This document shows positions 11,910-42,483 of a stretch of 64,000 bases of DNA, piece by piece. The position numbers and the translations under genes were made by a program. The notes beneath the pieces were generated by a model. The model did not search any database. It saw nothing but the letters and a program-made list of their open reading frames with translations, and was not told where the DNA came from. Every line of letters starts with the position of its first letter. Position 1 is the stretch's first letter. Where the stretch lies: positions 17,032 through 81,031 of the IMG/VR virus record IMGVR_UViG_3300012953_003264; one strand, written 5' to 3'. Source of the stretch: a virus. Its lineage: Duplodnaviria; Caudoviricetes.

Positions 11910-12505
11910 TAGTCTTTACCTTCCATTTCTGTACCAATGTAAGGGTCTACCTTATTCATTTCTTCAAATAGTTTAGTCGCATTTTCAAAACAATAAATTG
12001 CCTCTGGTAATACTGAATGTTGATAAACATTCATGTAACTATTAATTGTTTCTTTAATAATTCTACCAAACTCAATGACTTCTTTATTTCTAAAAGTGTG
12101 ATATCTACATGGTCCAGGTAGTTTCTTTTTCATCATTTGACCACCTTTTAAATCTCCCATATGTCTTACATAGATGTGAGCATATAGTTTTTCAGGATTA
12201 TCTCTAATACCTTTTACATGTTCAATATATTCTTTTGTACTATCAAAGATAGGTGGCTTTTCTTCATCTTTCCATAAGGCATTAAAGTCATATAATAAAT
12301 GTTCAGCTCTTTGAAGTCCTACGGTTGTTCTAAACAATGAATTTTCTTGAGCATATTTTTCTAAAGCTGCGTAGCATTGTAATTGATTATATAAAAACAC
12401 AGCAAATAATTTCTCTGGTATTTCACCAGACATTAATACTTTTACAAATTGTTGTCTTTCAGCGTTCTTATGGTATTCCCATGTTAACTCTTTTATATCA
12501 TACAT
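11909..12505 (-). CDS. hemO: Heme oxygenase
   Basis: Proximal His in ELTWEYHKNAE; signature AHIYVRHMGDLKGGQM; stop overlaps pcyX start. Confidence 0.9.
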   Translation of the reverse strand: MYDIKELTWEYHKNAERQQFVKVLMSGEIPEKLFAVFLYNQLQCYAALEKYAQENSLFRTTVGLQRAEHLLYDFNALWKDEEKPPIFDSTKEYIEHVKGIRDNPEKLYAHIYVRHMGDLKGGQMMKKKLPGPCRYHTFRNKEVIEFGRIIKETINSYMNVYQHSVLPEAIYCFENATKLFEEMNKVDPYIGTEMEGKD

Positions 12506-13529
12506 AAAATAATGCTCCTGAAACTCCTATTACTAATATTGCCCAACCACTCAATAATTTACCATAGTAGGATAGTTTTGTTCCGAAATACATCTTACCT
12601 ATTGTAACGCATTTATGCATTGGTGATAATATATATCCGGCAAAATCAACTGCAAAAAACCATGGTAGATATTCAATACCATATAAAGCAGTTAAAATAA
12701 CTGTAACAGCACCAAATCTACTAGATGAACCTAACAGAAAAGCAGATACAAATGCTAATAATGAAATTGCACCAAAACCTAACATTGTATTAGGGTCAAA
12801 TCCTGTGGCTGCCATAAAGTCATAGATATCGTTTGTACTTGTTCTAACTATATTTGCTATAGCAATAATTAAAGCAACCATACCTACAATTTTCCAATCA
12901 ACATAACTTATTAATTTTTTAGGATTAAATGTTTGAGTAACTACCATGTAGTATAAAGTTAATGCACTAAAAGACCATAGAAAATTTACACCTGCAATAA
13001 TAGAACCTATAGCAATAATATATGGAAAAACATATCTTGTTATTCTACTAACTTTAACTTTGCCTTTAGTATTTGTTAATTCTATATCTTCATCTTTAAT
13101 TACAAAAATTAAATACCATAAAATGTATGCAATTGTAACTGCTAACAGAGGCCACATAATTCCTAAAAATGCACCATATGATAAACCAAAGGCTGCCATA
13201 GGAAGAATGACCGTCTTTTCTAAAGGCGACCAGAAATAATAATGGTGTGTTGACATAAAATCAATAGGTCCAAACTTCTCTCTTTTCTTTGGGTCTTTAC
13301 TTGCTAATGTATCTAACAAACCTGCTGATACTGTAACTCTACCTTTTATAGGCATACAACCTGTTATGGCACTAAAGATTGCCACCACAGCTCTATTACT
13401 TTTTATATTTCTTTTTAAAAATGTAAACACATCACTAAAAAGGTTATTGTCTTTAATCATACCTGCAACCATCATCACAAAGATAATAAGAAACAAATAT
13501 ACTTGGCCTTTTAAAATTAATTCAATCAT
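12498..13529 (-). CDS. Multi-pass membrane protein, DUF401 / ion-transporter-superfamily-like
   Basis: About 9-10 hydrophobic segments; motifs GCMPIKG, HHYYFWSPLE, GYILSPMHKC resemble DUF401 signatures. Confidence 0.6.
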   Translation of the reverse strand: MIELILKGQVYLFLIIFVMMVAGMIKDNNLFSDVFTFLKRNIKSNRAVVAIFSAITGCMPIKGRVTVSAGLLDTLASKDPKKREKFGPIDFMSTHHYYFWSPLEKTVILPMAAFGLSYGAFLGIMWPLLAVTIAYILWYLIFVIKDEDIELTNTKGKVKVSRITRYVFPYIIAIGSIIAGVNFLWSFSALTLYYMVVTQTFNPKKLISYVDWKIVGMVALIIAIANIVRTSTNDIYDFMAATGFDPNTMLGFGAISLLAFVSAFLLGSSSRFGAVTVILTALYGIEYLPWFFAVDFAGYILSPMHKCVTIGKMYFGTKLSYYGKLLSGWAILVIGVSGALFYV

Positions 13530-13530
13530 A

Positions 13531-14028
13531 TTAAAAATAGTTAAAGTTTATATTAACTCTCCTAGGTTGGTTGGTGGTATTGGTACTACAATGTGGTTTA
13601 GAGGCGTCAAACAATAACATTCTATTTGCGACACTTTCTATTTTTGTACCGTCTTCTAATTTAGTATAACCATCACATGTATTAACACTAAACAAACCAC
13701 CATTGTTAAAATAACTATAGTCTGTATGTTTTTCATGTTCAATTAGTTTATCATCTTTTAAGTAACTATTAACCTTTACTCTTATCAAAGATTTGATTTC
13801 TATTTTTTTAAAAACACACTTCATAATAGTTTCATAATGAGGTGAAATAGGCATAGTGTCTTCATATAACATATGAAGATAATAAGAAAAATTATCCGAT
13901 TTATTTTTATCTAAACCTGTTTCTTTATAAGAGTCCATATAAAACCATGGAAAAGGTTCATTCATAATTAAATTGTGAATAAAAATAAAATCTTCTTTAT
14001 CTAAAAAATCGTCTATTACTTTGTGCAT
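13531..14028 (-). CDS. 2OG-Fe(II) oxygenase (type A)
   Basis: EHEKHTDY (HxD), NTCDGYT, SVANRMLLFDASKPHCST, RVNINFNYF. Confidence 0.8.
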   Translation of the reverse strand: MHKVIDDFLDKEDFIFIHNLIMNEPFPWFYMDSYKETGLDKNKSDNFSYYLHMLYEDTMPISPHYETIMKCVFKKIEIKSLIRVKVNSYLKDDKLIEHEKHTDYSYFNNGGLFSVNTCDGYTKLEDGTKIESVANRMLLFDASKPHCSTNTTNQPRRVNINFNYF

Positions 14029-14029
14029 G

Positions 14030-14611
14030 TTATAATCCTAAATTAAACGATATTGCTATTTTCTCGCCCTTTGGTTGTAATGTATTTCCATGTATCATAT
14101 CTCCTCTAAAGAGAAACAAACTACCTGCCTTACAATCTAATTTTACATCTTTTGAATTGTATATATTAGGTGTTTTAATCTCAATATGATTAGGATAATA
14201 ATATGATTGGTCATAAAAAGTTATTGTTGAATCTTTAGGTGCTTTTATATAATAAACACCCGATACTAAACAAAATCCATGGTGATGAGGAAATAAAAAA
14301 TCATTCTCGTTACTAATATTAAACCACATCTCGTTATACTTACATCTATCAATATATGAATTACTATATTCTAGTTGTTCAATAAAACTCAATGCCTTTT
14401 TGTAAATAAAATCACTTAAAAATTTTATCTCTTCTTTTTCAAATAGTCTGGTATCTGTGTGAAATGTTGTATCCACATTTTGCGTGGCTGTTCTTTTAAA
14501 ACCTTTTTGTTGTTTTAAAAAACCCTCTAAAAAATCCAGTTTATCTGAAAAGATATTTTCCATTAAAACTAGAGGTTTAGGAAATAAGTTTATAAGTTTT
14601 GCTTCATCCAT
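14030..14611 (-). CDS. Putative 2OG-Fe(II) oxygenase (TIGR02466-like)
   Basis: MWFN, FPHHH, VSGVYYI, LFLFRGDMIHG, KIAISFN. Confidence 0.75.
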   Translation of the reverse strand: MDEAKLINLFPKPLVLMENIFSDKLDFLEGFLKQQKGFKRTATQNVDTTFHTDTRLFEKEEIKFLSDFIYKKALSFIEQLEYSNSYIDRCKYNEMWFNISNENDFLFPHHHGFCLVSGVYYIKAPKDSTITFYDQSYYYPNHIEIKTPNIYNSKDVKLDCKAGSLFLFRGDMIHGNTLQPKGEKIAISFNLGL

Positions 14612-14619
14612 GATTTATC

Positions 14620-15141
14620 TCAAAAATAATTAATATTAATATTCATTCTGGTTTTACTATCTGAACAAGAGGTACTACAATGTGGTACAGAGGGGTCAAA
14701 AAATATTATTCTATTTGCAACACTTGGTATTTTCTCTTCACCTATTTTAGTATAACCATCACAGGTATTTAGGCTGTATAAGGCACCCTTATGTTTAAAT
14801 GGGTAGTCTGTATGTTCAGCATGTTCTTTTACTCCTAATCCTTGGTTCAAATAAAGATTACATTTAACTCTTATAAGAGCTTTAGGGTCTATCTTTTTTA
14901 ATAATGGAAACATTAACTCAAAATATTTACTTTGATGTAATGATGTTTGATTATAAAATACATGACAAAGATAGAAAAAAATATCTTTATCTTTTTGTTC
15001 TAAAGTTATTTTATCTGCAAGGTGCCAATCAAAACCTTGGTCATTTATTACTTCTAAAATCTTTTTATAATCTTCTTCAGGAAGAAAATCATCTACAATA
15101 ATTCTATTGTTACCAACATCACCCATATCCCATTTAGCCAT
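14620..15141 (-). CDS. 2OG-Fe(II) oxygenase (type A, paralog of 13531-14028)
   Basis: EHAEHTDY, NTCDGYT, SVANRIIFFDPSVPHCST, RMNININYF. Confidence 0.8.
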   Translation of the reverse strand: MAKWDMGDVGNNRIIVDDFLPEEDYKKILEVINDQGFDWHLADKITLEQKDKDIFFYLCHVFYNQTSLHQSKYFELMFPLLKKIDPKALIRVKCNLYLNQGLGVKEHAEHTDYPFKHKGALYSLNTCDGYTKIGEEKIPSVANRIIFFDPSVPHCSTSCSDSKTRMNININYF

Positions 15142-15490
15142 TTTTTAAGTCCTCATAATTATCTGGATTTCTAATATACAATCTCTTACCATGAAAATCC
15201 TGTTTATAGTCTAATGTTTTAAATTTAATTTCTTGATATATGTCATTATGAACAAGCCATCTAGGCATTTTAGGTCCTTTAATGTCTAACAACCAAGCAA
15301 AAACATCTCTATTATTAGAAAAGTACCAATAGTATTCGTATTTAAATTGAGATTTTTTAAGATAACAATATCTCTTACCACCATCTCTTTTAAATTCATT
15401 AATAACTTCCCATTCAGCGTCATTAGCTAATCTAACAATATGTCGTAATCCGTTTTGTTCTTGCCATCTACTCATATTATCGGTATCCAT
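15134..15490 (-). CDS. Hypothetical protein
   Basis: 118-aa aromatic-rich ORF overlapping both neighbours. Confidence 0.5.
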   Translation of the reverse strand: MDTDNMSRWQEQNGLRHIVRLANDAEWEVINEFKRDGGKRYCYLKKSQFKYEYYWYFSNNRDVFAWLLDIKGPKMPRWLVHNDIYQEIKFKTLDYKQDFHGKRLYIRNPDNYEDLKNG

Positions 15491-16065
15491 CTAGTAAAAT
15501 TTAAAGGGTCAATTTTATTTCGTTGTAAAAAATCAAATGCTATTGTAATTCTAGGTTCTTCTTTATTAGTCCATGGTGTAACTCTATGTAATAGACCAGC
15601 AGGGCTAAGTGTAATGTAACCATTTTTATTTACAATTGTGTCAACCAGGCCTTTATCATTTTTATATAAAGTTTTACTAGGTTCAGCATTTACTGATACA
15701 TAACCATGCCATCTTCCGTCATTACCAACTTTTGGTCCATGTTTATGCCAATCTAAATATTCATCTTTATCATATACATTTACCCAACCTGCCATAGCAT
15801 AGTCATAGTAATTAGATTCTTTTGTTTTAAAATACTGAATTACTAGATTATATAATTCTGCAAAACCAGGCATTTGACATAAGAATACATTGTAAGTTTC
15901 ATATAATTGTGTGCTTAAACTACCTTTAGCAAATTTCATATAATCTTTATCCCATGTTTTAATCCAGTTAGAGTGTCTTTTACTAACTTCGTTTGCCAAG
16001 TTTATACAACTAGGTTTTAATATATTACAATTATCAGAATGAAATAGATGGTCGTGGTGTATCAT
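15472..16065 (-). CDS. Putative 2OG-Fe(II) oxygenase
   Basis: GWVNVY, LDWHKH, HGYVSV, GLLHRV, PRITIAFD. Confidence 0.7.
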   Translation of the reverse strand: MIHHDHLFHSDNCNILKPSCINLANEVSKRHSNWIKTWDKDYMKFAKGSLSTQLYETYNVFLCQMPGFAELYNLVIQYFKTKESNYYDYAMAGWVNVYDKDEYLDWHKHGPKVGNDGRWHGYVSVNAEPSKTLYKNDKGLVDTIVNKNGYITLSPAGLLHRVTPWTNKEEPRITIAFDFLQRNKIDPLNFTRWIPII

Positions 16066-16066
16066 G

Positions 16067-16675
16067 TTAAATTATCAGGTGATTACTATTTTCGGGGTCA
16101 CCCATTTCTCCTTTAATAAATGTGTTAAATGATATTGTAACTCTGTCATTGTTACTCTCATTTTTATCAACATCATGTACCATAGATGAAGGAAATATAA
16201 TCAATCGGCCAACTTCATTCATCACTCCAGCTTTTGTAGCTGTAAATGCGCTACTGCCTTTATCGCCATCATAAAAAGCAAAATTACCAAAAGATGTTCT
16301 ATCATCATATCTATAAAAATATGTTGGACATTTATCACCACTTACATAATAGATACAACTAAAAATACTATTAGGGTGCATATGTGTATGATGATAAGAA
16401 TGAGGTGGATTTGTATTCATCCAAGACTGTGTTATATAAAAACTTGTTTTATCACTAGCGCCTAATTGTTTGCCAAATGCTTTAACATTAAGTAAACACC
16501 AATTTTTAAAGTCTTTCATAGACTCATCTTCCATTATATCTTTTCTAGGAGTTATATAATTACCACCTTTATTTTTTATTGTTCCTAATGTTTTTAAATA
16601 TTGTATTTGTTCTTCTTTTAAATTATATAAATTATCTGATTTATATACAGGTGTTGCGAATATAGCGTCTATCAT
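16067..16675 (-). CDS. Putative 2OG-Fe(II) oxygenase (TIGR02466-like)
   Basis: IFATPVY, TQSWMN, HHTHMHPNSIFSCIYY, LIIFPSSMVHDV, RVTISFNT. Confidence 0.8.
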   Translation of the reverse strand: MIDAIFATPVYKSDNLYNLKEEQIQYLKTLGTIKNKGGNYITPRKDIMEDESMKDFKNWCLLNVKAFGKQLGASDKTSFYITQSWMNTNPPHSYHHTHMHPNSIFSCIYYVSGDKCPTYFYRYDDRTSFGNFAFYDGDKGSSAFTATKAGVMNEVGRLIIFPSSMVHDVDKNESNNDRVTISFNTFIKGEMGDPENSNHLII

Positions 16676-17430
16676 TTAAAGTACCTCTTATATAATTCTT
16701 TCACCTTATTTCTAGTAGGTGAAAATGAGAAACTAGACCAATAAGGTTTTTTTTCTATCCATCTCATTTCTTTTGCATTTGCGTCCCGACACACCATATT
16801 TAATTTTTTGCCCCAAATAGGAACAATTTGCATTAATGGTGTGCCGGCTTTAATAAACCTTTCTCCCTCTTTTACATTCCAATAAAGTTGTACATTTAAC
16901 TCTGAACTTAAAGCAGGTTCTAAAACACCAGACGAACTCTCCCAATCGTAATGGTCTGGATATGGCATTGGTAAAAATAAAAACTTTATTTCTGGTGGTG
17001 CAATAATATTATAAGGTGTATTAATCTTTACAATATTGTTTATACGACCTTCTCTTTTAGGAATAAACTTTGTAATCATATCGCCATGAGTATCAATAAT
17101 ATTCATCTTTGTTTGTTCCATTAAATCGCCACTTGCAACTCGCCAAGAAAAGCCTTCTTTAGTTTTATCTGTTTTTATATAAACATCATACCACGCTGAT
17201 ACATACCAACCAAATTTAAATAAGTCAAATATGCCAGGACATAAGGCTATATGATTGCCTTTTTCGTTTTGTTTATAATTTTTTTTGTAATCTTCTATTG
17301 CCTTTTTAGTCCAACTAGGTTTATAATCAGACATAGGTCTTATAGGAAACATGTCAGCTACACCTGGTACGGTGCTGACAAACTTGACATAATCTAAATC
17401 TTCCCAAAACTCTTGATAATTCCAACTCAT
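16672..17430 (-). CDS. Hypothetical protein with possible dUTPase-like beta fold
   Basis: CPGIFD...GW, KINTPY, SSGVLE, IKAGTPLMQIVP; ATGA overlaps with both neighbours. Confidence 0.5.
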   Translation of the reverse strand: MSWNYQEFWEDLDYVKFVSTVPGVADMFPIRPMSDYKPSWTKKAIEDYKKNYKQNEKGNHIALCPGIFDLFKFGWYVSAWYDVYIKTDKTKEGFSWRVASGDLMEQTKMNIIDTHGDMITKFIPKREGRINNIVKINTPYNIIAPPEIKFLFLPMPYPDHYDWESSSGVLEPALSSELNVQLYWNVKEGERFIKAGTPLMQIVPIWGKKLNMVCRDANAKEMRWIEKKPYWSSFSFSPTRNKVKELYKRYFK

Positions 17431-19097
17431 TTATTTAATACAAATACTCCTAATCCATTCCAAAAATCATTAGGGTCTTCACCCTCTGTAAATATTTCTT
17501 CTTTAAATAATACTTTGTAACCTAATTTCTCTATTGACCTAAATGTGCCGTGTCTAACTTGCGACCAATTCCAGTCATCAATAATTAAACAGAAAGTATT
17601 ATCAATCTTACTATTATATTTAGTCAAGAAGGAATAGTGAGCTTCCACGGTGTGTTCGCCATCATAGAGTACAACATTTGATTTTACAGGTATCTTGCTT
17701 AGAGAATTTTCCGAGTCCGAGTCCACGATAGTAATAGATTTACCACCAGTATATGGTCTAATATTTTTTAAGAATACTTGTTTAGTATCATCTGTTTCTG
17801 CCTTAATGTCTATATCTCTCATTGGTACATTATGCGTATCTGACCAATTATCAACAGCGTTTGCAATTATATTATTACCCTCTAAAGCAGAGGCAAACAT
17901 AGCACCTTGATATACACCTACTTCCAAATAAGTTGTATCTGGCATTTCACACATATTATTAATAAAGTGTTTTACTTTGTGAGATGTTAGACCAGGCAAG
18001 TCTAATACTGTTTGAGATAGTTTTGACTCTTCTCTTCTTGATTTATCTAACGCATTTTTAACGGCGTCAAGCATTACCTTTTGATTATTTTTCATTGTTA
18101 TTAAATCACACACATTACAATCCCAACAATTAAACTTACAATTTCTTATTGTAGTTTTCCAGACATCAATCCTTTTTTGTGCAAATTGATTATCTTTTAT
18201 AAAGTTTTCAAAATCAGTATATAGTATTTCATCATTATTGTCAAACTTTTGTATAATCTTCATAGTTTCAAATAAACGACCAACATCTTCACGACCATGC
18301 ATTTTTACCACATCTATGTAACCTAACAATCTATCCCACTCATCTCTAAATGGTGGAAAATTTGCTATTCGCCAATGATATGCTGGGTCTTGTTCGTCCC
18401 ATTTAGGACATGAGAAGTAACTTATTGGTGTTTTAAAGTATGTTGGTTGATTGCCTTTGCTTCTTGTATTGTTATATAAAAAGTGTTCATCTTGAACAGG
18501 ACAATTTCCGTAACAACCCTCATTTGCAAGTAAACTATACTTGACATCAACACCAAGTTTATCTTTACAATACTTTTTTACATCTTGCATACGCTTTAAA
18601 GTATCTTCATCTCTCATCAAATCTCTATCAAAGTTTATGTAATGAAAACCAGCCTCTACACACTTAACAACTTCGTTTGGTCTTTGTACATTTCTTAATA
18701 TAGTATTCTTAATCATCACATCTGGATATGCCTTTTGAAAACGGCCTGATAACATCCAAAGAGTGTGTGGTATTGTAACTATACGGACTCCCTTATCGTA
18801 TAGTAATTTAAAATTTTTTATGAATAAATCTAAATTTTCGTCTGTAGGTGGTACTTCTATATTATTAAAAGTAGCAGACAAAGGAATGCCTGTAACCTTT
18901 GGTATGATAAAGGCATTTTCGTTGATTAAATTGTATTGAGTTTCGTTAAAGACATCTCCCATTGCGTCTTGTATAAAGGGAGGTATTCTACTTGTAAAAT
19001 AAACATCATAGATTAAATGTTTATATCTTTTAAGAAAATTTAAAAAAGAATCAAACTGTTGTGGTGTTAATTTGGGATTGAGTGGTACACTAAACAT
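17427..19097 (-). CDS. Peptidase-U32-like Fe-S domain fused to class I SAM methyltransferase
   Basis: N-half: NFDRDLMRD, LLANEGCYGNCP, SCPKW, VVKMHGRE, CKFNCWDCNVC; C-half: YLEVGVYQG, AVDNW, LYDGEH, LIIDDWNW. Confidence 0.7.
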   Translation of the reverse strand: MFSVPLNPKLTPQQFDSFLNFLKRYKHLIYDVYFTSRIPPFIQDAMGDVFNETQYNLINENAFIIPKVTGIPLSATFNNIEVPPTDENLDLFIKNFKLLYDKGVRIVTIPHTLWMLSGRFQKAYPDVMIKNTILRNVQRPNEVVKCVEAGFHYINFDRDLMRDEDTLKRMQDVKKYCKDKLGVDVKYSLLANEGCYGNCPVQDEHFLYNNTRSKGNQPTYFKTPISYFSCPKWDEQDPAYHWRIANFPPFRDEWDRLLGYIDVVKMHGREDVGRLFETMKIIQKFDNNDEILYTDFENFIKDNQFAQKRIDVWKTTIRNCKFNCWDCNVCDLITMKNNQKVMLDAVKNALDKSRREESKLSQTVLDLPGLTSHKVKHFINNMCEMPDTTYLEVGVYQGAMFASALEGNNIIANAVDNWSDTHNVPMRDIDIKAETDDTKQVFLKNIRPYTGGKSITIVDSDSENSLSKIPVKSNVVLYDGEHTVEAHYSFLTKYNSKIDNTFCLIIDDWNWSQVRHGTFRSIEKLGYKVLFKEEIFTEGEDPNDFWNGLGVFVLNK

Positions 19098-19110: not shown

Positions 19111-19129
19111 TTGCCGGGAGGAACGGCAA
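19111..19129 (-). terminator. GC-rich hairpin (possible terminator/attenuator or processing site)
   Basis: TTGCCG-N7-CGGCAA inverted repeat in a 40-nt AT-rich gap; only a weak U-tract follows on the minus strand. Confidence 0.4.
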
Positions 19130-19137
19130 CCTTTTAC

Positions 19138-19890
19138 TTAAAAAGTAATTTTTGTAGGAGGAGCGCCTATACTACCGTCTTCAGCTGCTTGTTCCGTACT
19201 AACAGTTATAGCTAATTTATTATGTCTCCACAAATGTGCTTTAGCTATAGTGTCTAATGCGTCAACTTCATCCTCTAATTTTTTTTGTTCGGCTAATTTT
19301 GTAGCAATAGCAGAATTATATGCTGTAACTTTAGAATTAATTTTTCCAACTAAATCTGAAACTGAAATACCTCTAGCAGTTGCCATTGTTGTTAACATTG
19401 GTGTACTTGCTGAATTATCGGCTGTCCATGCAGCTGCTTCATCTTTTTGTTGTTCAAATGATAACTGTTCTAAATCACCTACTCTAGCACTTACGATATC
19501 TTTTGCTTTATCGTTAAATCTATCTCTAATATATTTTTTAAAAACTAAATGATTAAAAGTAAGACCTGAAGCAATTTCATCAGCAGTCATATCGTGTCTT
19601 ACACTTGATGGAGCGTTAGGGTCTGTATCGGACAATATTACAGGAAAATCATCTGAAATAGCGTCACCTGATTTTAATTTTACATATCCTCTATATGCGT
19701 CTGCAAAGATAGAAGATTTTGCTTCCGCTGCTGTTATAATTTCTGCGCCGATTGAATCTAAATCCAATCTCATATCTTGGTATTCGTCTGCAATTCTATA
19801 AACACCATATGCGCCATAAGTTGTATATGCTTCTAACCAACCTTTGCCTGAAGCGTCTTGGTTTTTTACTAATACATGTATGTTAGCCAT
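19138..19890 (-). CDS. Tail-fibre assembly/chaperone-like protein
   Basis: C-terminal EQLSFEQQKDEAAAWTADNSASTPMLTTMATARGIS motif typical of fibre-assembly proteins. Confidence 0.55.
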   Translation of the reverse strand: MANIHVLVKNQDASGKGWLEAYTTYGAYGVYRIADEYQDMRLDLDSIGAEIITAAEAKSSIFADAYRGYVKLKSGDAISDDFPVILSDTDPNAPSSVRHDMTADEIASGLTFNHLVFKKYIRDRFNDKAKDIVSARVGDLEQLSFEQQKDEAAAWTADNSASTPMLTTMATARGISVSDLVGKINSKVTAYNSAIATKLAEQKKLEDEVDALDTIAKAHLWRHNKLAITVSTEQAAEDGSIGAPPTKITF

Positions 19891-20746
19891 TTGAATTGTC
19901 CTTTAAGTCTTTATACTTATTATTTATAAGAGCATTACTCTCATCTACATTATTTTCTTGCATATTTTCTAGCATGTTTTCTGCTAAAAAATCGTCTGTA
20001 ATACCAATATGTCCCATTTTTTCTTTAGTATCTGGATCCACATAACCTATTTTCATATCATTTATTGCCTTGTCAGTTAATAATCCCATACCTGTGCCTA
20101 CTCTTGCTGTATAATTACTTGTCAATTGTAGTGTTTCTTTTATCTCTTTTGGTCCTAACATTGCAATAGCATCCATATTACCAGTACCTATTCTACCATA
20201 GGCCAACATTTCCATACTCGCTTGTTTAGCTAATCTTGTAATCCAATGTTGTTTTTCTAATTCTTCTTCTAACTCTTTATTACCAAAAACATCCATCAAC
20301 TTTGTGCCATTTGGTAAAGTACCTTGAGGACCTTCACATAACTCTCTAATCAATTCTAGTATTGAGTCTTTTTCTCTTAATGCAACAATAAGAGAATCTT
20401 CGTGTCTTTTTTTATCTTTTACAATATTTAATAAGTCTATTTCAATATATTGTTTTTCAATATCATTTGTAGATTGAGCAAGCTTTTCTCTCTCAACCAT
20501 TTCTTCTAATTCTTTTCTTTTAATTTCCCATTGAATATGTAAATAAGAATCTTGTCTTATTTTTAATTCTAAAAACAATTGTTTTAGTTTGTGAAAGGGT
20601 GTAATTAGTGAACCACCAACAAAGTATTTTAATTTAAATTTAGGTACTCCGCCGTCAACTTTGTGGTTAGCAAATTCAATTAAATCGGTATCAGTCATAT
20701 TTTCTAGGACTACACCATCATCTTTTTTATTCATTTCATTCTCCAT
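19883..20746 (-). CDS. Coiled-coil hypothetical protein
   Basis: 287 aa, long Glu/Lys/Leu helical segment; AYGRIGTGNMDAI. Confidence 0.6.
   Translation of the reverse strand: MENEMNKKDDGVVLENMTDTDLIEFANHKVDGGVPKFKLKYFVGGSLITPFHKLKQLFLELKIRQDSYLHIQWEIKRKELEEMVEREKLAQSTNDIEKQYIEIDLLNIVKDKKRHEDSLIVALREKDSILELIRELCEGPQGTLPNGTKLMDVFGNKELEEELEKQHWITRLAKQASMEMLAYGRIGTGNMDAIAMLGPKEIKETLQLTSNYTARVGTGMGLLTDKAINDMKIGYVDPDTKEKMGHIGITDDFLAENMLENMQENNVDESNALINNKYKDLKDNSNG
19921..19928 (-). promoter_or_regulatory. Candidate late promoter TATAAATA inside upstream ORF
   Basis: tatttata 31 nt upstream of ATG at 19890. Confidence 0.45.
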
Positions 20747-20771
20747 TTATACTATAGTATAATATATTTAT

Positions 20772-22160
20772 CTATGTTCTCCAGCCGCAATGTCCTGAAG
20801 ATTGACCAGCGTTTGCTGTAGGTTGTAAACCACTATGGTCTGTTCTTGTATCTGTATGATAATATTGTTGCCATGTTCCGTTATTTTGAGAACCATCAAA
20901 ATTACCAAGCATGTAACCCCAATCTTGTCCTAGTGTAAAGTTTTCTTCTCCACAATTTGCACGATATTTTGAAAAAGTACCTGTGTTACTATCGTTAGTT
21001 AAATTCCATCTTCGTAAGTTATATCCACCATTGTAAGTACCTTCATTACCACAATAACCTAATCTAATTTTAGTTGGCATACCTTTTTGTTGTCCGTGAG
21101 CAGACCAATGAGTTGTACCTGAAGTAGAAAAAGTTTGGTGATTTACTTTGAAACCACTACCATCTCCCCAATGATACCCTTGGTCTTTATCAGAAAATGC
21201 CGAGTTGGTACTACCACCACCTCTTATGTCACCAGAATTATCTGATTGTCTTGCCTCTGTAGCAAGATTAAATACTTCCATATTACTTCTATCACCACCA
21301 CCATGAAATGATAAAAATGTTTCTTTGAATGATGTACCTGAGTCGTTTCTATCACTATAGGTATTAAATGTACTATTATGTGATTTACTTGTTTCGGTGT
21401 ACATGTGAAAACCAGATGTTCTGGAACTAGGTGTAAAATGACTATTATCTGACGGTGTTGACCATAAGAAAAAAGTAGTATCACTACAAGCGCCAGAAAT
21501 ATAAGAACCTGGGTGGTCCATTTGAATACCTAAATTTGTAGTTTGGTGTGTAGCACAATTTGTTCTATGAATTTGTCTCCAAGGTGAGCCGTTTCTATAA
21601 CCACCACCTGTGTAAGCGACATTAATTATCTGTCTAAATTTCCATTGAGCAGCTCTTGATGTTGAATCTCTGTAACCTTGACTGTTTGCACCACCATAAC
21701 CGGATGTTCCTACATAGCCACCTGCTTGCATTAATGTAGAAATTTCGTTACCTGTAAAAAAAGGAGTAAAATAAGGATATTTACCTTGATTGTATCTATT
21801 GTCGCCGTAAATTCTTAATGCGTTTGCACCTCTACTACTAATGCTGACATCTTCACCAACGACACCACCACCAAAAATTTCACTATTTCCATTAACTGTA
21901 CCACTACCAAAAGTTGGATGATTAACTGTACCAGACCCGCCACCTGAAGCCAGGTCTCTGTAAGTAGAATTGAAAACACCACGCATAACTTGGTCCATGG
22001 TACGAATACCATAGTTTCTCGCATATGAATCGTCATATGTGTTTGCTCTGTTAGATGTACTGCTTCCGGAAGGACCAGCGTCATGTATAGTTTCTGTAGT
22101 ACCTATTTCAGAATTATTTTGCCGTCTTCCGAGCCTTCTACCTATAATTGGTCCAGACAT
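20772..22160 (-). CDS. Gly/Ser-rich virion protein with C-terminal beta-propeller-like repeats
   Basis: 462 aa; about 40-aa repeats AYTGGGY / SFHGGG / GYHWG / GYCG / GYMLG in C-terminal 280 aa. Confidence 0.55.
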   Translation of the reverse strand: MSGPIIGRRLGRRQNNSEIGTTETIHDAGPSGSSTSNRANTYDDSYARNYGIRTMDQVMRGVFNSTYRDLASGGGSGTVNHPTFGSGTVNGNSEIFGGGVVGEDVSISSRGANALRIYGDNRYNQGKYPYFTPFFTGNEISTLMQAGGYVGTSGYGGANSQGYRDSTSRAAQWKFRQIINVAYTGGGYRNGSPWRQIHRTNCATHQTTNLGIQMDHPGSYISGACSDTTFFLWSTPSDNSHFTPSSRTSGFHMYTETSKSHNSTFNTYSDRNDSGTSFKETFLSFHGGGDRSNMEVFNLATEARQSDNSGDIRGGGSTNSAFSDKDQGYHWGDGSGFKVNHQTFSTSGTTHWSAHGQQKGMPTKIRLGYCGNEGTYNGGYNLRRWNLTNDSNTGTFSKYRANCGEENFTLGQDWGYMLGNFDGSQNNGTWQQYYHTDTRTDHSGLQPTANAGQSSGHCGWRT

Positions 22161-41381: not shown

Positions 41382-42483
41382 TCTCAAAGTCATGTTTGAC
41401 ATATCAACCAGATGTAATGCTGGTTGCCCCCAATGTCATAGAACCGATACAAACAATGTATCAAAAAAAGTATCTTGGTTACCAGATGTAGTTTGGTCTT
41501 TTGAAAATTTTAAAAAGGCAGTACCACCAAAAATGGCTAAAGATATGAAGACAGCTGACTTTTGTGGAACCTGGGGCGACCCTATTACTAATAATGATTT
41601 AATAGATATAGTTAAATATCTAGTTACAGAAAATCCTAGAATTAATATAGATTTAAACACCAATGGCTCTTTAAGAAATGAAGATTGGTGGTGGAGATTA
41701 GGTGTGGCAGGTGGTAGAAATCTATGTGTTACTTTTGCTGTTGAAGGCATAAATCAAGAAATGCATGAACACTATAGACAAAACACTTATTTAAATAAAA
41801 TTCTTGAAAATATGAGAGTTGTATCTAATACTTTAGCATTTGTAAAAACACAATGTCTAGTTTGGAAACACAATGAAAATCATTTACAAGAGATAGAAGA
41901 CATGTGTATAAAAAACGGTTCTAAATCTCATGTGTTAATGGTGACAGATAGATTTGGTGATGAAGGTACATCCGAGTTAAAATTCGTTCATAAAGGTAAA
42001 GAGAAAGTATTAGAACAAACAAATTGGAAAGTAGAAAATACTAATGATAATATAGTACAAACAAGTAGAAGAAGGTATCGTAGAAGAGAAAAAGAATTAC
42101 CTGGTAAATCTGTAGAGATGGTTAGAAAATTAAGAAAACAACAAAGTAAAATGGATATTACTTGCGAATGGGGTAATAATAATAAAGTAGTTGTTAATCC
42201 TGATGGCCAAGTTTGGCCTTGTTGTTTTTTCTGTAACCCTACCTATAAATCACAATTTGTTGAAGGATATGACGCTAAGTTTAAGAACAATCCTGTTATG
42301 ATGGAATATGAAAAAAATAAATCCGATTTAAATGTATTTAAAAATAGTTTAGATAAAATTATAAATGACAAATGGTACAAAACTACACTACCGAATAGTT
42401 GGCAATCTGATAAACCTGTAAGTCAATGTATTAGATATTGTGGTAAAAAAAGTAAAATGAAAGAAATGCTGGATAAAATTTAA
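41365..42483 (+). CDS. Radical SAM enzyme with C-terminal SPASM/twitch domain
   Basis: CNAGCPQC (CxxxCxxC), CGTWGDP, NTNG, C...NPDGQVWPCC, CIRYC. Confidence 0.88.
   Translation: MWKNNNLKVMFDISTRCNAGCPQCHRTDTNNVSKKVSWLPDVVWSFENFKKAVPPKMAKDMKTADFCGTWGDPITNNDLIDIVKYLVTENPRINIDLNTNGSLRNEDWWWRLGVAGGRNLCVTFAVEGINQEMHEHYRQNTYLNKILENMRVVSNTLAFVKTQCLVWKHNENHLQEIEDMCIKNGSKSHVLMVTDRFGDEGTSELKFVHKGKEKVLEQTNWKVENTNDNIVQTSRRRYRRREKELPGKSVEMVRKLRKQQSKMDITCEWGNNNKVVVNPDGQVWPCCFFCNPTYKSQFVEGYDAKFKNNPVMMEYEKNKSDLNVFKNSLDKIINDKWYKTTLPNSWQSDKPVSQCIRYCGKKSKMKEMLDKI

Follow-up and report, generated by a model that had tools for sequence, protein, structure and literature searches.

We propose, as a tentative and nearly evenly balanced reading, that a gene widespread in marine T4-like phages codes for a bifunctional tailoring enzyme in which a U32-like barrel hydroxylates a substrate and a fused O-methyltransferase methylates it. 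The gene lies on the minus strand at 17427..19097 of the 64-kb stretch of DNA analyzed here (the window), which is part of the 81-kb viral record IMGVR_UViG_3300012953_003264, itself estimated to be 57% complete. The window codes for portal, sheath and large terminase proteins, for gp15- and gp14-type neck proteins and for a heme oxygenase and bilin reductase pair, and the source virus is, judged from its sequence, a marine T4-like phage related to the cyanomyoviruses, for which we assert no host. The closest relatives of the target gene in sequenced phages are found in cyanomyoviruses (40-46% identity), and the cyanophage counterpart of the fusion gene is T4-GC 354.

A barrel and an O-methyltransferase in one chain

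The target is a single ATG-initiated open reading frame (ORF) of 556 amino acids that spans the whole of 17427..19097. It and its parts, all on the minus strand, are as follows:

17427..19097 (-), whole target ORF, 556 amino acids, fusion of a U32-like TIM barrel, putatively binding iron-sulfur (Fe-S) clusters, with an O-methyltransferase (ORF list; phrog_1458)
18063..19097 (-), N-terminal domain, residues 1-345, a (beta/alpha)8 barrel, very probably of a divergent U32 type (fold model and profile comparison)
18408..18521 (-), Cys loop after strand 7, residues 193-230 (E193, C195, C199, E204, H205, C230), candidate three-Cys cluster site (conservation and model)
18291..18314 (-), D262-x2-K265-x2-G268-R269 on strand 8, matching U32 'K-I-E-G-R' (near-invariant; hhalign against U32 'lKIEGR')
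18108..18140 (-), C320-X3-C324-X2-C327-X2-C330 at the end of the N-terminal domain, candidate second Fe-S cluster or Zn site (invariant in 71/71)
17430..18062 (-), C-terminal domain, residues 346-556, cation-dependent class I O-methyltransferase fold, Methyltransf_24-like (fold model and conservation)
17904..17927 (-), motif I LEVGVYQG for binding of S-adenosylmethionine (SAM), residues 391-398 (E392, G394 and G398 at least 90% conserved; follows Rossmann strand 1)
17565..17666 (-), YDGEH, residues 478-482, and IDDWNW, residues 506-511, with candidate metal-binding acidic residues (invariant in 29 homologues)

A prior interpretation made from the letters of the window alone (the sequence-only reading) had singled out six motifs, all of which are present, namely EGCYGNCP (residues 193-200), SCPKW (229-233) and CKFNCWDCNVC (320-330) in the first half and LEVGVYQG, YDGEH and IDDWNW at the residues given above in the second. 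They are not there by chance, as seven Cys are invariant in 71 homologues of the first half and D479, D507, D508, W509 and N510 are invariant in 29 homologues of the methyltransferase.

The protein is matched over its full length by phrog_1458 (E 2.8e-159), and PHROGs gives its function as unknown, as it does for phrog_36869, a family with the N-terminal domain only. A homologue is present in 126 phage records, in 121 of which at least 80% of the query is covered; most carriers are myoviruses of Synechococcus and Prochlorococcus, and three are Ralstonia jumbo phages, in which only the N-terminal half is present. A word-indexed metagenome search (E<=1e-3) returned 1,938 clusters at 90% identity, and none of the 120 clusters listed has a functional name; where the matches listed and the homologues sampled carry a source name, it is 'hypothetical protein'. 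One homologue of 579 amino acids (L139:1558-3297) has an extra N-terminal region of 233 amino acids in which no family is detectable, on a contig that also codes for a PIN protein, a class II-type ribonucleotide reductase and a Maf/MptE-like protein. A Pfam scan of the other fused or longer homologues (P0134, P0216, P0236, P0149 and others) found no extra domains, and their extra regions match no neighbour protein.

The N-terminal domain is very probably a divergent U32-superfamily barrel, a conclusion that draws on structure, on profile-profile comparison and on language-model neighbours. An exhaustive HMMER search of 1.84 billion representatives gave 228 related clusters, and 71 of these, down to 23% identity, form the family alignment used throughout. 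The AlphaFold model built from this alignment (pLDDT 95.3, pTM 0.92) bears out the TIM-barrel-like half of the sequence-only reading, with eight alternating strand/helix units, a long insertion (residues 192-262) between strands 7 and 8, three more helices and a coil that bears the last four Cys. The fold is a (beta/alpha)8 barrel of the U32 type: in a Foldseek comparison with the PDB, 5d88 (the U32 protein Mk0906) came first, with an E of 4.7e-7, a TMt of 0.70 and a root-mean-square deviation (rmsd) of 4.3, and generic TIM barrels had a TMt of about 0.45-0.5 and an rmsd of about 8. In the viral structure library BFVD, the best match outside the domain's own family is a phage 'Peptidase' (E 1.9e-9, TMt 0.73).

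Profile comparison points the same way. The 71-sequence profile aligned by hhalign with the four Escherichia coli U32 paralogues at E 3.3e-5, and with a larger profile of 70 U32 proteins, from 61 Pseudomonadota genomes plus E. coli, at E 1.4e-6, or, with ragged columns trimmed, at E 5.6e-8 with a probability of 92.8% over 292 columns; the best E among the controls (the U32 alignment reversed and ten block-shuffled versions) was 1e-3. Alignment against a single UbiU or UbiV sequence was uninformative. The pairs formed by hhalign put D31 on the Asp of U32 'GADAVY', N78 on the Asn of 'LNT', K130 on an invariant His, R158 on the Arg of 'RELS' and K265-x2-G268-R269 on 'KIEGR', and the family has D31, N78, K130, T132, D157, R158, R162, E193, E204, H205, D262, K265, G268 and R269 near-invariant. 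The K-x-x-G-R motif of the last strand is almost fully conserved (K265 in 70/71, G268 in 69/71, R269 in 70/71). The nearest named clusters in the language-model search (Atlas) are a viral 'Peptidase U32 (Fragment)' and two clusters with PF01136 on 20% of their members. Neither Pfam (E<=0.1) nor NCBIfam has anything for the domain, and sequence searches of the PDB with phmmer and hmmsearch gave only de novo TIM barrels and a zinc finger, at E>0.05. Isoelectric points fail to separate U32 proteins that act on RNA from others. A literature search found nothing on U32 with cyanophage or on Mk0906, and only incidental co-mentions for U32 with bacteriophage.

Seven Cys (C195, C199, C230, C320, C324, C327 and C330) are invariant in all 71 sequences and fall into two sets, both of which appear suited to Fe-S binding. 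The first, spaced C195-X3-C199-X30-C230, directly follows the strand 186-191 of the model and is accompanied by E193, E204 and H205, each conserved in at least 90% of the sequences. The second forms a knuckle, C320-C330, predicted to be coil between the helices 307-319 and 329-344. U32 proteins are known to bind 4Fe-4S clusters through conserved Cys with the motif CX6CX15CX3/4C, the ligands being C169, C176, C193 and C232 in UbiU and C39, C180, C193 and C197 in UbiV (PMC6747719), and TrhP requires E162, C170 and C177 (PMC6599085). By analogy with the UbiU-UbiV heterodimer, the three-Cys and four-Cys sites of the phage domain would be compatible with a substrate-facing and a relay cluster, respectively. 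The CX3CX2C within the knuckle also suggested a radical SAM protein, a candidate identity that we reject, as the motif sits past the full eight-stranded barrel and with a fourth invariant Cys, PF04055 has no match, and no radical SAM enzyme is among the 50 structural neighbours listed.

The C-terminal domain has a Rossmann fold with SAM motif I and is closest to the Mg2+-dependent COMT/CCoAOMT/TylF class. In its model (pLDDT 93.2) the closest structures are cation-dependent O-methyltransferases, so the class I methyltransferase of the sequence-only reading stands and is of a type that fits the methylation of a hydroxyl. Pfam Methyltransf_24 scores 22.1 bits with the whole protein and 24.1 bits with the domain alone, against a cut-off of 26.3, and many homologues carry PF13578 in precomputed annotation; standalone methyltransferase relatives of about 220 amino acids also exist. 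The 29 methyltransferase homologues share D416, D479, D507, D508, W509 and N510, plus a W-N-G-x-G motif, without exception. D479, D507, D508 and N510 stand where strands 4 and 5 end in the model, and they may form an Asp/Asp/Asn triad of the COMT type.

The two halves also occur as separate genes. In three metagenomic contigs (L148, L150 and L151) a standalone U32-like gene, 44% identical to the N-terminal domain, overlaps an adjacent standalone methyltransferase gene that is 35-37% identical to the C-terminal domain, and this split, overlapping form supports one shared substrate or pathway. A documented precedent for linking U32 genes and an O-methyltransferase in one pathway is the trmR-trhP2-trhP1 operon of Bacillus subtilis, in which the genes for TrmR (YrrM) and two U32 proteins (YrrN, YrrO) stand together (PMC6599085) and the products make 5-methoxyuridine at position 34 (mo5U34) via 5-hydroxyuridine (ho5U34; PMC6599085, PMC6158493).

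Gene neighborhood and transcription unit

On the minus strand the target is preceded by a 462-amino-acid protein and two conserved genes, here called A and B, and is followed by a 252-amino-acid protein, five 2-oxoglutarate (2OG) oxygenase-like genes with one 118-amino-acid ORF, a DUF401-like gene, heme oxygenase and bilin reductase. The features around the target, all on the minus strand, are as follows:

20772..22160 (-), 462-amino-acid fiber-module protein rich in Gly, Ser, Thr and Asn, 'sericin-like', T4-GC 351 (conserved upstream phage neighbor)
19921..19928 (-), nearest upstream T4-type late-promoter octamer, TATAAATA, before gene B (pattern search)
19883..20746 (-), gene A, 287 amino acids, phrog_1409, the most persistent neighbor of U32-like genes (sequence comparison)
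19138..19890 (-), gene B, 250 amino acids, conserved neighbor (sequence comparison)
19111..19129 (-), small hairpin TTGCCG...CGGCAA in the 40-nucleotide gap between B and the target start (read from sequence)
16672..17430 (-), 252-amino-acid protein, phrog_7084, its start overlapping the target stop (ATGA), no Pfam match
13531..16675 (-), five 2OG-Fe(II)-oxygenase-like genes and one 118-amino-acid ORF, tightly packed downstream (PF13759, PF13640, phrog_81, phrog_274)
12498..13529 (-), DUF401-like multi-pass membrane protein (PF04165, E 2.3e-5)

The sequence-only reading had the target heading an operon of O2-dependent hydroxylases. A series of overlapping 2OG-Fe(II)-oxygenase-like genes does follow it, but the head is probably wrong by one gene: the target is probably the second gene of its unit and B the first, as the octamer at 19921-19928 stands before B. 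This octamer is the only one on the minus strand between 11224 and 26354, and there is none in the 40-nucleotide gap before the target; with 14 octamers found window-wide against 16 expected, which is not above chance, it is a positional hint only. The hairpin in the gap has a 6-bp stem and no T-run, and its role could lie in processing or stability, or in blocking access to the ribosome-binding region.

The 462-amino-acid protein, A and B travel with the U32-like gene across phage lineages (window 19138-22160, L148:184-3972, L155:4336-7035). Homologues of the 462-amino-acid protein include two paralogues in L148 (45-47% identity) and the genes in the same position in the phages S-RIM12 and P-HM2 (28-30%). 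In P-HM2 this protein, A, B and the target are consecutive as T4-GC 351-354, although the order of A and B is swapped between the source phage and P-HM2, and in S-RIM12 the 462-amino-acid protein and A are present and B is not matched. Homologues of A adjoin U32-like genes in L148 (35%), in a bacterial contig of 6.4 Mb (L140; 28%, E 7e-14), in S-RIM12 and in P-HM2, and A precedes the U32-like gene in the Ralstonia phage RP31, a link made via A of L148 (E 5e-18); an Atlas search with protein A gave nothing. B is 36% identical to a 246-amino-acid gene beside the split U32-like gene of L148 and is matched in P-HM2 (T4-GC 352). A and B also precede the standalone U32-like gene of L140, B being linked to that contig only through B of L148.

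The DUF401-like protein recurs outside the cyanophages. It is 44% identical (E 6e-106) to a gene (L140:7071-8180) that shares an overlap with the bacterial U32-like gene at the 3' end of the latter, 32% identical to ORF135 of RP31 (L001:6016-7056), which directly follows the U32-like ORF136, and 37-38% identical to a gene two positions downstream in L148 (L148:7641-8645) and L150, and it is also found in L142. The whole S-RIM12 genome lacks it, so that it often accompanies U32-like genes without being obligatory. In the window its stop overlaps the heme oxygenase start, and it might serve in the transport of a substrate, metal or product.

Among the 2OG-oxygenase-like genes, the PF13759 matches reach E 3.5e-19 and 3e-10, with weaker matches to PF13759 and PF13640. 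In S-RIM12 a homologue of the 165/173-amino-acid type overlaps the 3' end of the fusion gene and is annotated 'tail fiber protein'. The small paralogues at 13531-14028 and 14620-15141 (-) fall into phrog_274, which is labelled 'DNA endonuclease V', and in Syn33 a gene under the match bears the annotation denV. Both show an H-x-D...H pattern, with a weak match of one of them to 2OG-FeII_Oxy_3. They resemble small 2OG oxygenases, and the denV label is probably wrong. None of the homologues examined in other genomes has a counterpart of the 252-amino-acid protein next to it.

In four independent contexts (the P0130 contig, L145, L148 and L150) the U32-like gene has a radical SAM gene immediately before it or overlapping it, and the cyanophage fusion genes have no adjacent radical SAM gene. 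In a RiPP-like cluster (ribosomally synthesized and post-translationally modified peptide; L143:72-5139 and L144), the genes are for PqqD, two radical SAM/SPASM enzymes, a 312-amino-acid unknown, a U32-like protein 28% identical to the target N-terminal domain, a 47-amino-acid ORF and an S24 peptidase, which suggests that some family members act on peptides. A radical SAM gene of the window itself (41383-41922, +), located in a large tailoring cluster, is 24-27% identical (E about 1e-6) to the radical SAM/SPASM enzymes of L143. In a 58-kb phage contig (L146:5001-7526), a distant U32-like member of 446 amino acids overlaps the heme oxygenase start and is followed by a bilin reductase that is 48% identical to that of the window, where heme oxygenase and bilin reductase end the unit of the target. 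A bilin or tetrapyrrole link is possible and is left as an observation, since auxiliary-gene islands cluster for other reasons. The 1111-amino-acid fiber of the window was considered as kin of a giant LamG/DUF6519 protein beside a bacterial homologue, and the two are unrelated.

The proposed reaction, its alternatives and the substrate

In the reaction that we infer, with its metal binding, hydroxylase chemistry, oxygen donor, order of steps and substrate, the barrel would bind one or two Fe-S clusters and would hydroxylate an aromatic or heteroaromatic carbon independently of O2, like the characterized U32 proteins and possibly with prephenate as the donor, while the second cluster may act as an electron relay, which is the role of the partner subunit in UbiU-UbiV. 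The methyltransferase would then use SAM to O-methylate the new hydroxyl, held to a metal together with a neighboring oxygen, to give a methoxy group. The enzyme would be made from a late transcription unit, and it belongs to a conserved module with A, B and the Gly/Ser-rich fiber-module protein, to which other lineages add the DUF401-like membrane protein and a radical SAM enzyme. Hydroxylation followed by O-methylation is the best supported reading. All of the functions that have been tied experimentally to U32 proteins so far are hydroxylations (PMC6747719, PMC6599085, PMC10990095). Prephenate is the oxygen donor for UbiU-V and has been proposed as such for U32 proteins in general (PMC10990095).

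A number of points weigh against this reading. The protein has no match to PF01136 at E<=0.1, nor do any of the 71 homologues at E<=0.01, and a six-frame search of the 81-kb record at E<=10 found nothing, while 10/14 control genomes were matched. The canonical CX6CX15CX3/4C is absent from the phage family, and the position of the essential Glu, which precedes the first motif Cys by eight residues (E162 in TrhP, E161 in RlhA), corresponds to residue 187, where the family has L, T, I or M; another Glu, E193, stands two residues before C195 in 69/71 sequences. With this other Cys motif and Glu spacing the chemistry may differ from that of the known U32 enzymes. The confidence of hhalign is near zero over the Cys region, where its low-confidence register (C199 on UbiU C193, C230 on UbiU C232) clashes with the strand positions, so that these Cys are no more than candidate equivalents of the U32 ligands. 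The structural neighbors of the C-terminal domain are tied within 1 Z unit (TomG 16.1; a Leptospira O-methyltransferase 15.9; MeT1 15.8; MycF 15.8, with 17% identity; SynOMT 15.6; TrmR 15.4; SpnH 15.2; COMT about 14.4), so they name the class of methyltransferase and not the class of substrate. Known U32 systems do not show the frequent linkage to radical SAM/SPASM enzymes and a transporter-like membrane protein that is seen here, and a direct hydroxylase activity of TrhP and RlhA has not been shown in vitro (PMC10990095). No chorismate mutase is coded in the 81-kb record, so that any prephenate would be host-derived, and no tRNA gene is present in the window.

As the Pfam model, the Cys motif and the Glu position do not fit, and the fold, the profile homology and the K-x-x-G-R motif do, the N-terminal domain lies outside U32 in the Pfam sense and is filed as a new divergent variant within the U32 superfamily. 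The 'U32-type domain' of the sequence-only reading thus holds insofar as U32 is the closest known kin of the TIM barrel, and has to be qualified for the missing PF01136 match, the other Cys spacing and the misplaced essential Glu.

The same departures from U32 can be read as a sign that the barrel is a U32-fold Fe-S enzyme but no hydroxylase, i.e., a reductase, dehydratase, lyase or electron-transfer partner of a radical SAM enzyme, with the methyltransferase acting on a pre-existing sugar or aromatic hydroxyl. Besides the non-canonical Cys pattern, the three Cys with E193, E204 and H205 suggest a site-differentiated cluster, and radical SAM genes stand next to the U32-like gene in the four contexts described above, with two radical SAM/SPASM genes and PqqD nearby in another. 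On the methyltransferase side, the structural neighbors include the sugar O-methyltransferases MeT1, MycF and SpnH, and a 30%-identical standalone methyltransferase is found in a glycosyltransferase/aminotransferase cluster without a U32-like gene. We nevertheless regard this explanation as rather unlikely, since the U32 functions with an experimental link are all hydroxylations, since the fusion and the split-gene form argue that both domains share one substrate, and since the cyanophage versions have no radical SAM gene beside them.

The precedent in B. subtilis also invites a phage version of the TrhP and TrmR pathway, in which C5 hydroxylation of a wobble uridine (or of an rRNA cytidine) and methylation to mo5U would retune decoding for AT-rich phage genes. 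This is very unlikely, as the protein has neither Peptidase_U32_C (PF16325) nor another RNA-binding extension, its barrel domain ending in the four-Cys knuckle and then the methyltransferase, and it matches neither the Pfam U32 nor the Methyltransf_3 model; moreover, the conserved neighbors are fiber-module and membrane proteins rather than translation genes, the window is without tRNA genes, and expression appears to be late, with the structural genes. We give even less credence to a genuine peptidase, the 'collagenase PrtC' reading, which would cleave the Gly/Ser-rich fiber protein or a precursor peptide with the methyltransferase acting separately. MEROPS does place U32 among the peptidases, the target stands beside a Gly/Ser-rich protein of a structural module, and distant homologues are part of the RiPP-like cluster with PqqD, radical SAM/SPASM enzymes and a 47-amino-acid ORF, where a leader peptidase is expected, but seven invariant Cys in a metal-binding arrangement speak for a redox or cluster chemistry, the U32 proteins studied most thoroughly bind Fe-S and are required for hydroxylation, and U32 has no defined protease catalytic residues to compare.

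For the hydroxylating and methylating enzyme that we prefer, the neighborhood favors a substrate tied to the fiber module or the membrane protein over tRNA. The context argues against tRNA through the missing RNA-binding extension, the absence of tRNA genes from the window and the fiber-module and membrane neighbors, and it is compatible with a protein or peptide, a small phenolic or a membrane-bound substrate. We rank a fiber- or surface-linked phenolic residue or small molecule first, a membrane-associated aromatic, e.g., a quinone precursor, second and RNA pyrimidines third. A more specific proposal, which we consider clearly unlikely as it stands, is that a hitherto overlooked two-cluster clade of U32 Fe-S enzymes in marine T4-like phages and some bacteria acts within the conserved module (A, B, the U32-like protein and the O-methyltransferase, in many cases with a DUF401-like membrane protein and a radical SAM enzyme), and that this module methoxylates a structural or surface component of the phage with an O2-independent donor. 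An example of such virion modification would be the conversion of Tyr via 3,4-dihydroxyphenylalanine (DOPA) to methoxy-Tyr on the neighboring Gly/Ser/Tyr-rich fiber protein.

Significance and comparison with known systems

To our knowledge, no enzymes other than U32 proteins are known to use an organic oxygen donor, prephenate, for the hydroxylation of aromatic carbons. Most U32 subfamilies are uncharacterized, and the family has been described as almost exclusively bacterial and archaeal (PMC10990095). The U32 placement gives a conserved, unnamed cyanophage gene, T4-GC 354, a concrete function that can be tested, and a single-chain and possibly self-sufficient U32 system could ease the still-missing in vitro assay of U32 chemistry. 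It also raises the question of why phages of oxygen-producing hosts would carry O2-independent hydroxylation beside five O2-dependent 2OG oxygenases. If the virion-modification proposal were true, it would represent a new kind of post-translational modification of virions, and U32 chemistry would for the first time have a protein as substrate or a virus as carrier.

Compared with the U32 Fe-S family (UbiU/UbiV, RlhA and TrhP; PF01136; 5d88), the phage family lacks a PF01136 match and the U32_C and DUF3656 extensions, has CX3CX30C and an extra C-terminal CX3CX2CX2C in place of CX6CX15CX3/4C, and differs from the canonical spacing of the essential Glu. It also comes with a fused methyltransferase, occurs in phages, where marine T4-like ones carry it widely, and has A, B, DUF401-like and radical SAM genes as neighbors. 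The methyltransferase, for its part, is only 9-17% identical in structural alignments to members of the COMT/CCoAOMT/TylF class (TomG, SafC, SynOMT, MeT1, MycF and SpnH), from which it differs by a family-specific N-terminal helical cap and by its covalent link to a putative Fe-S barrel.

The B. subtilis operon trmR(yrrM)-trhP2(yrrN)-trhP1(yrrO) for mo5U34 resembles the phage chain in combining U32 proteins with a cation-dependent O-methyltransferase of the COMT fold that acts on the hydroxyl from the U32 step, but it does so with separate genes, whereas the phage protein is one chain. TrmR is a Pfam Methyltransf_3 protein and the phage domain scores only with Methyltransf_24, and TrhP1 has an RNA-related C-terminal domain that is missing in the phage protein, for which a tRNA substrate is without context support. 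The O2-independent ubiquinone pathway of UbiU-UbiV-UbiT and UbiG would share its logic with the phage enzyme, i.e., a U32 hydroxylase with two 4Fe-4S clusters per unit followed by O-methylation, although UbiG is a different type of methyltransferase from the class of the phage C-terminal domain. The clusters of UbiU-UbiV come from a heterodimer, whereas the two Cys sets of the phage protein are in one domain. A further likeness to UbiU-UbiV-UbiT may be an accessory partner that handles a membrane-bound substrate, which is an SCP2 protein in the case of UbiT and would be the DUF401-like polytopic membrane protein in that of the phage.

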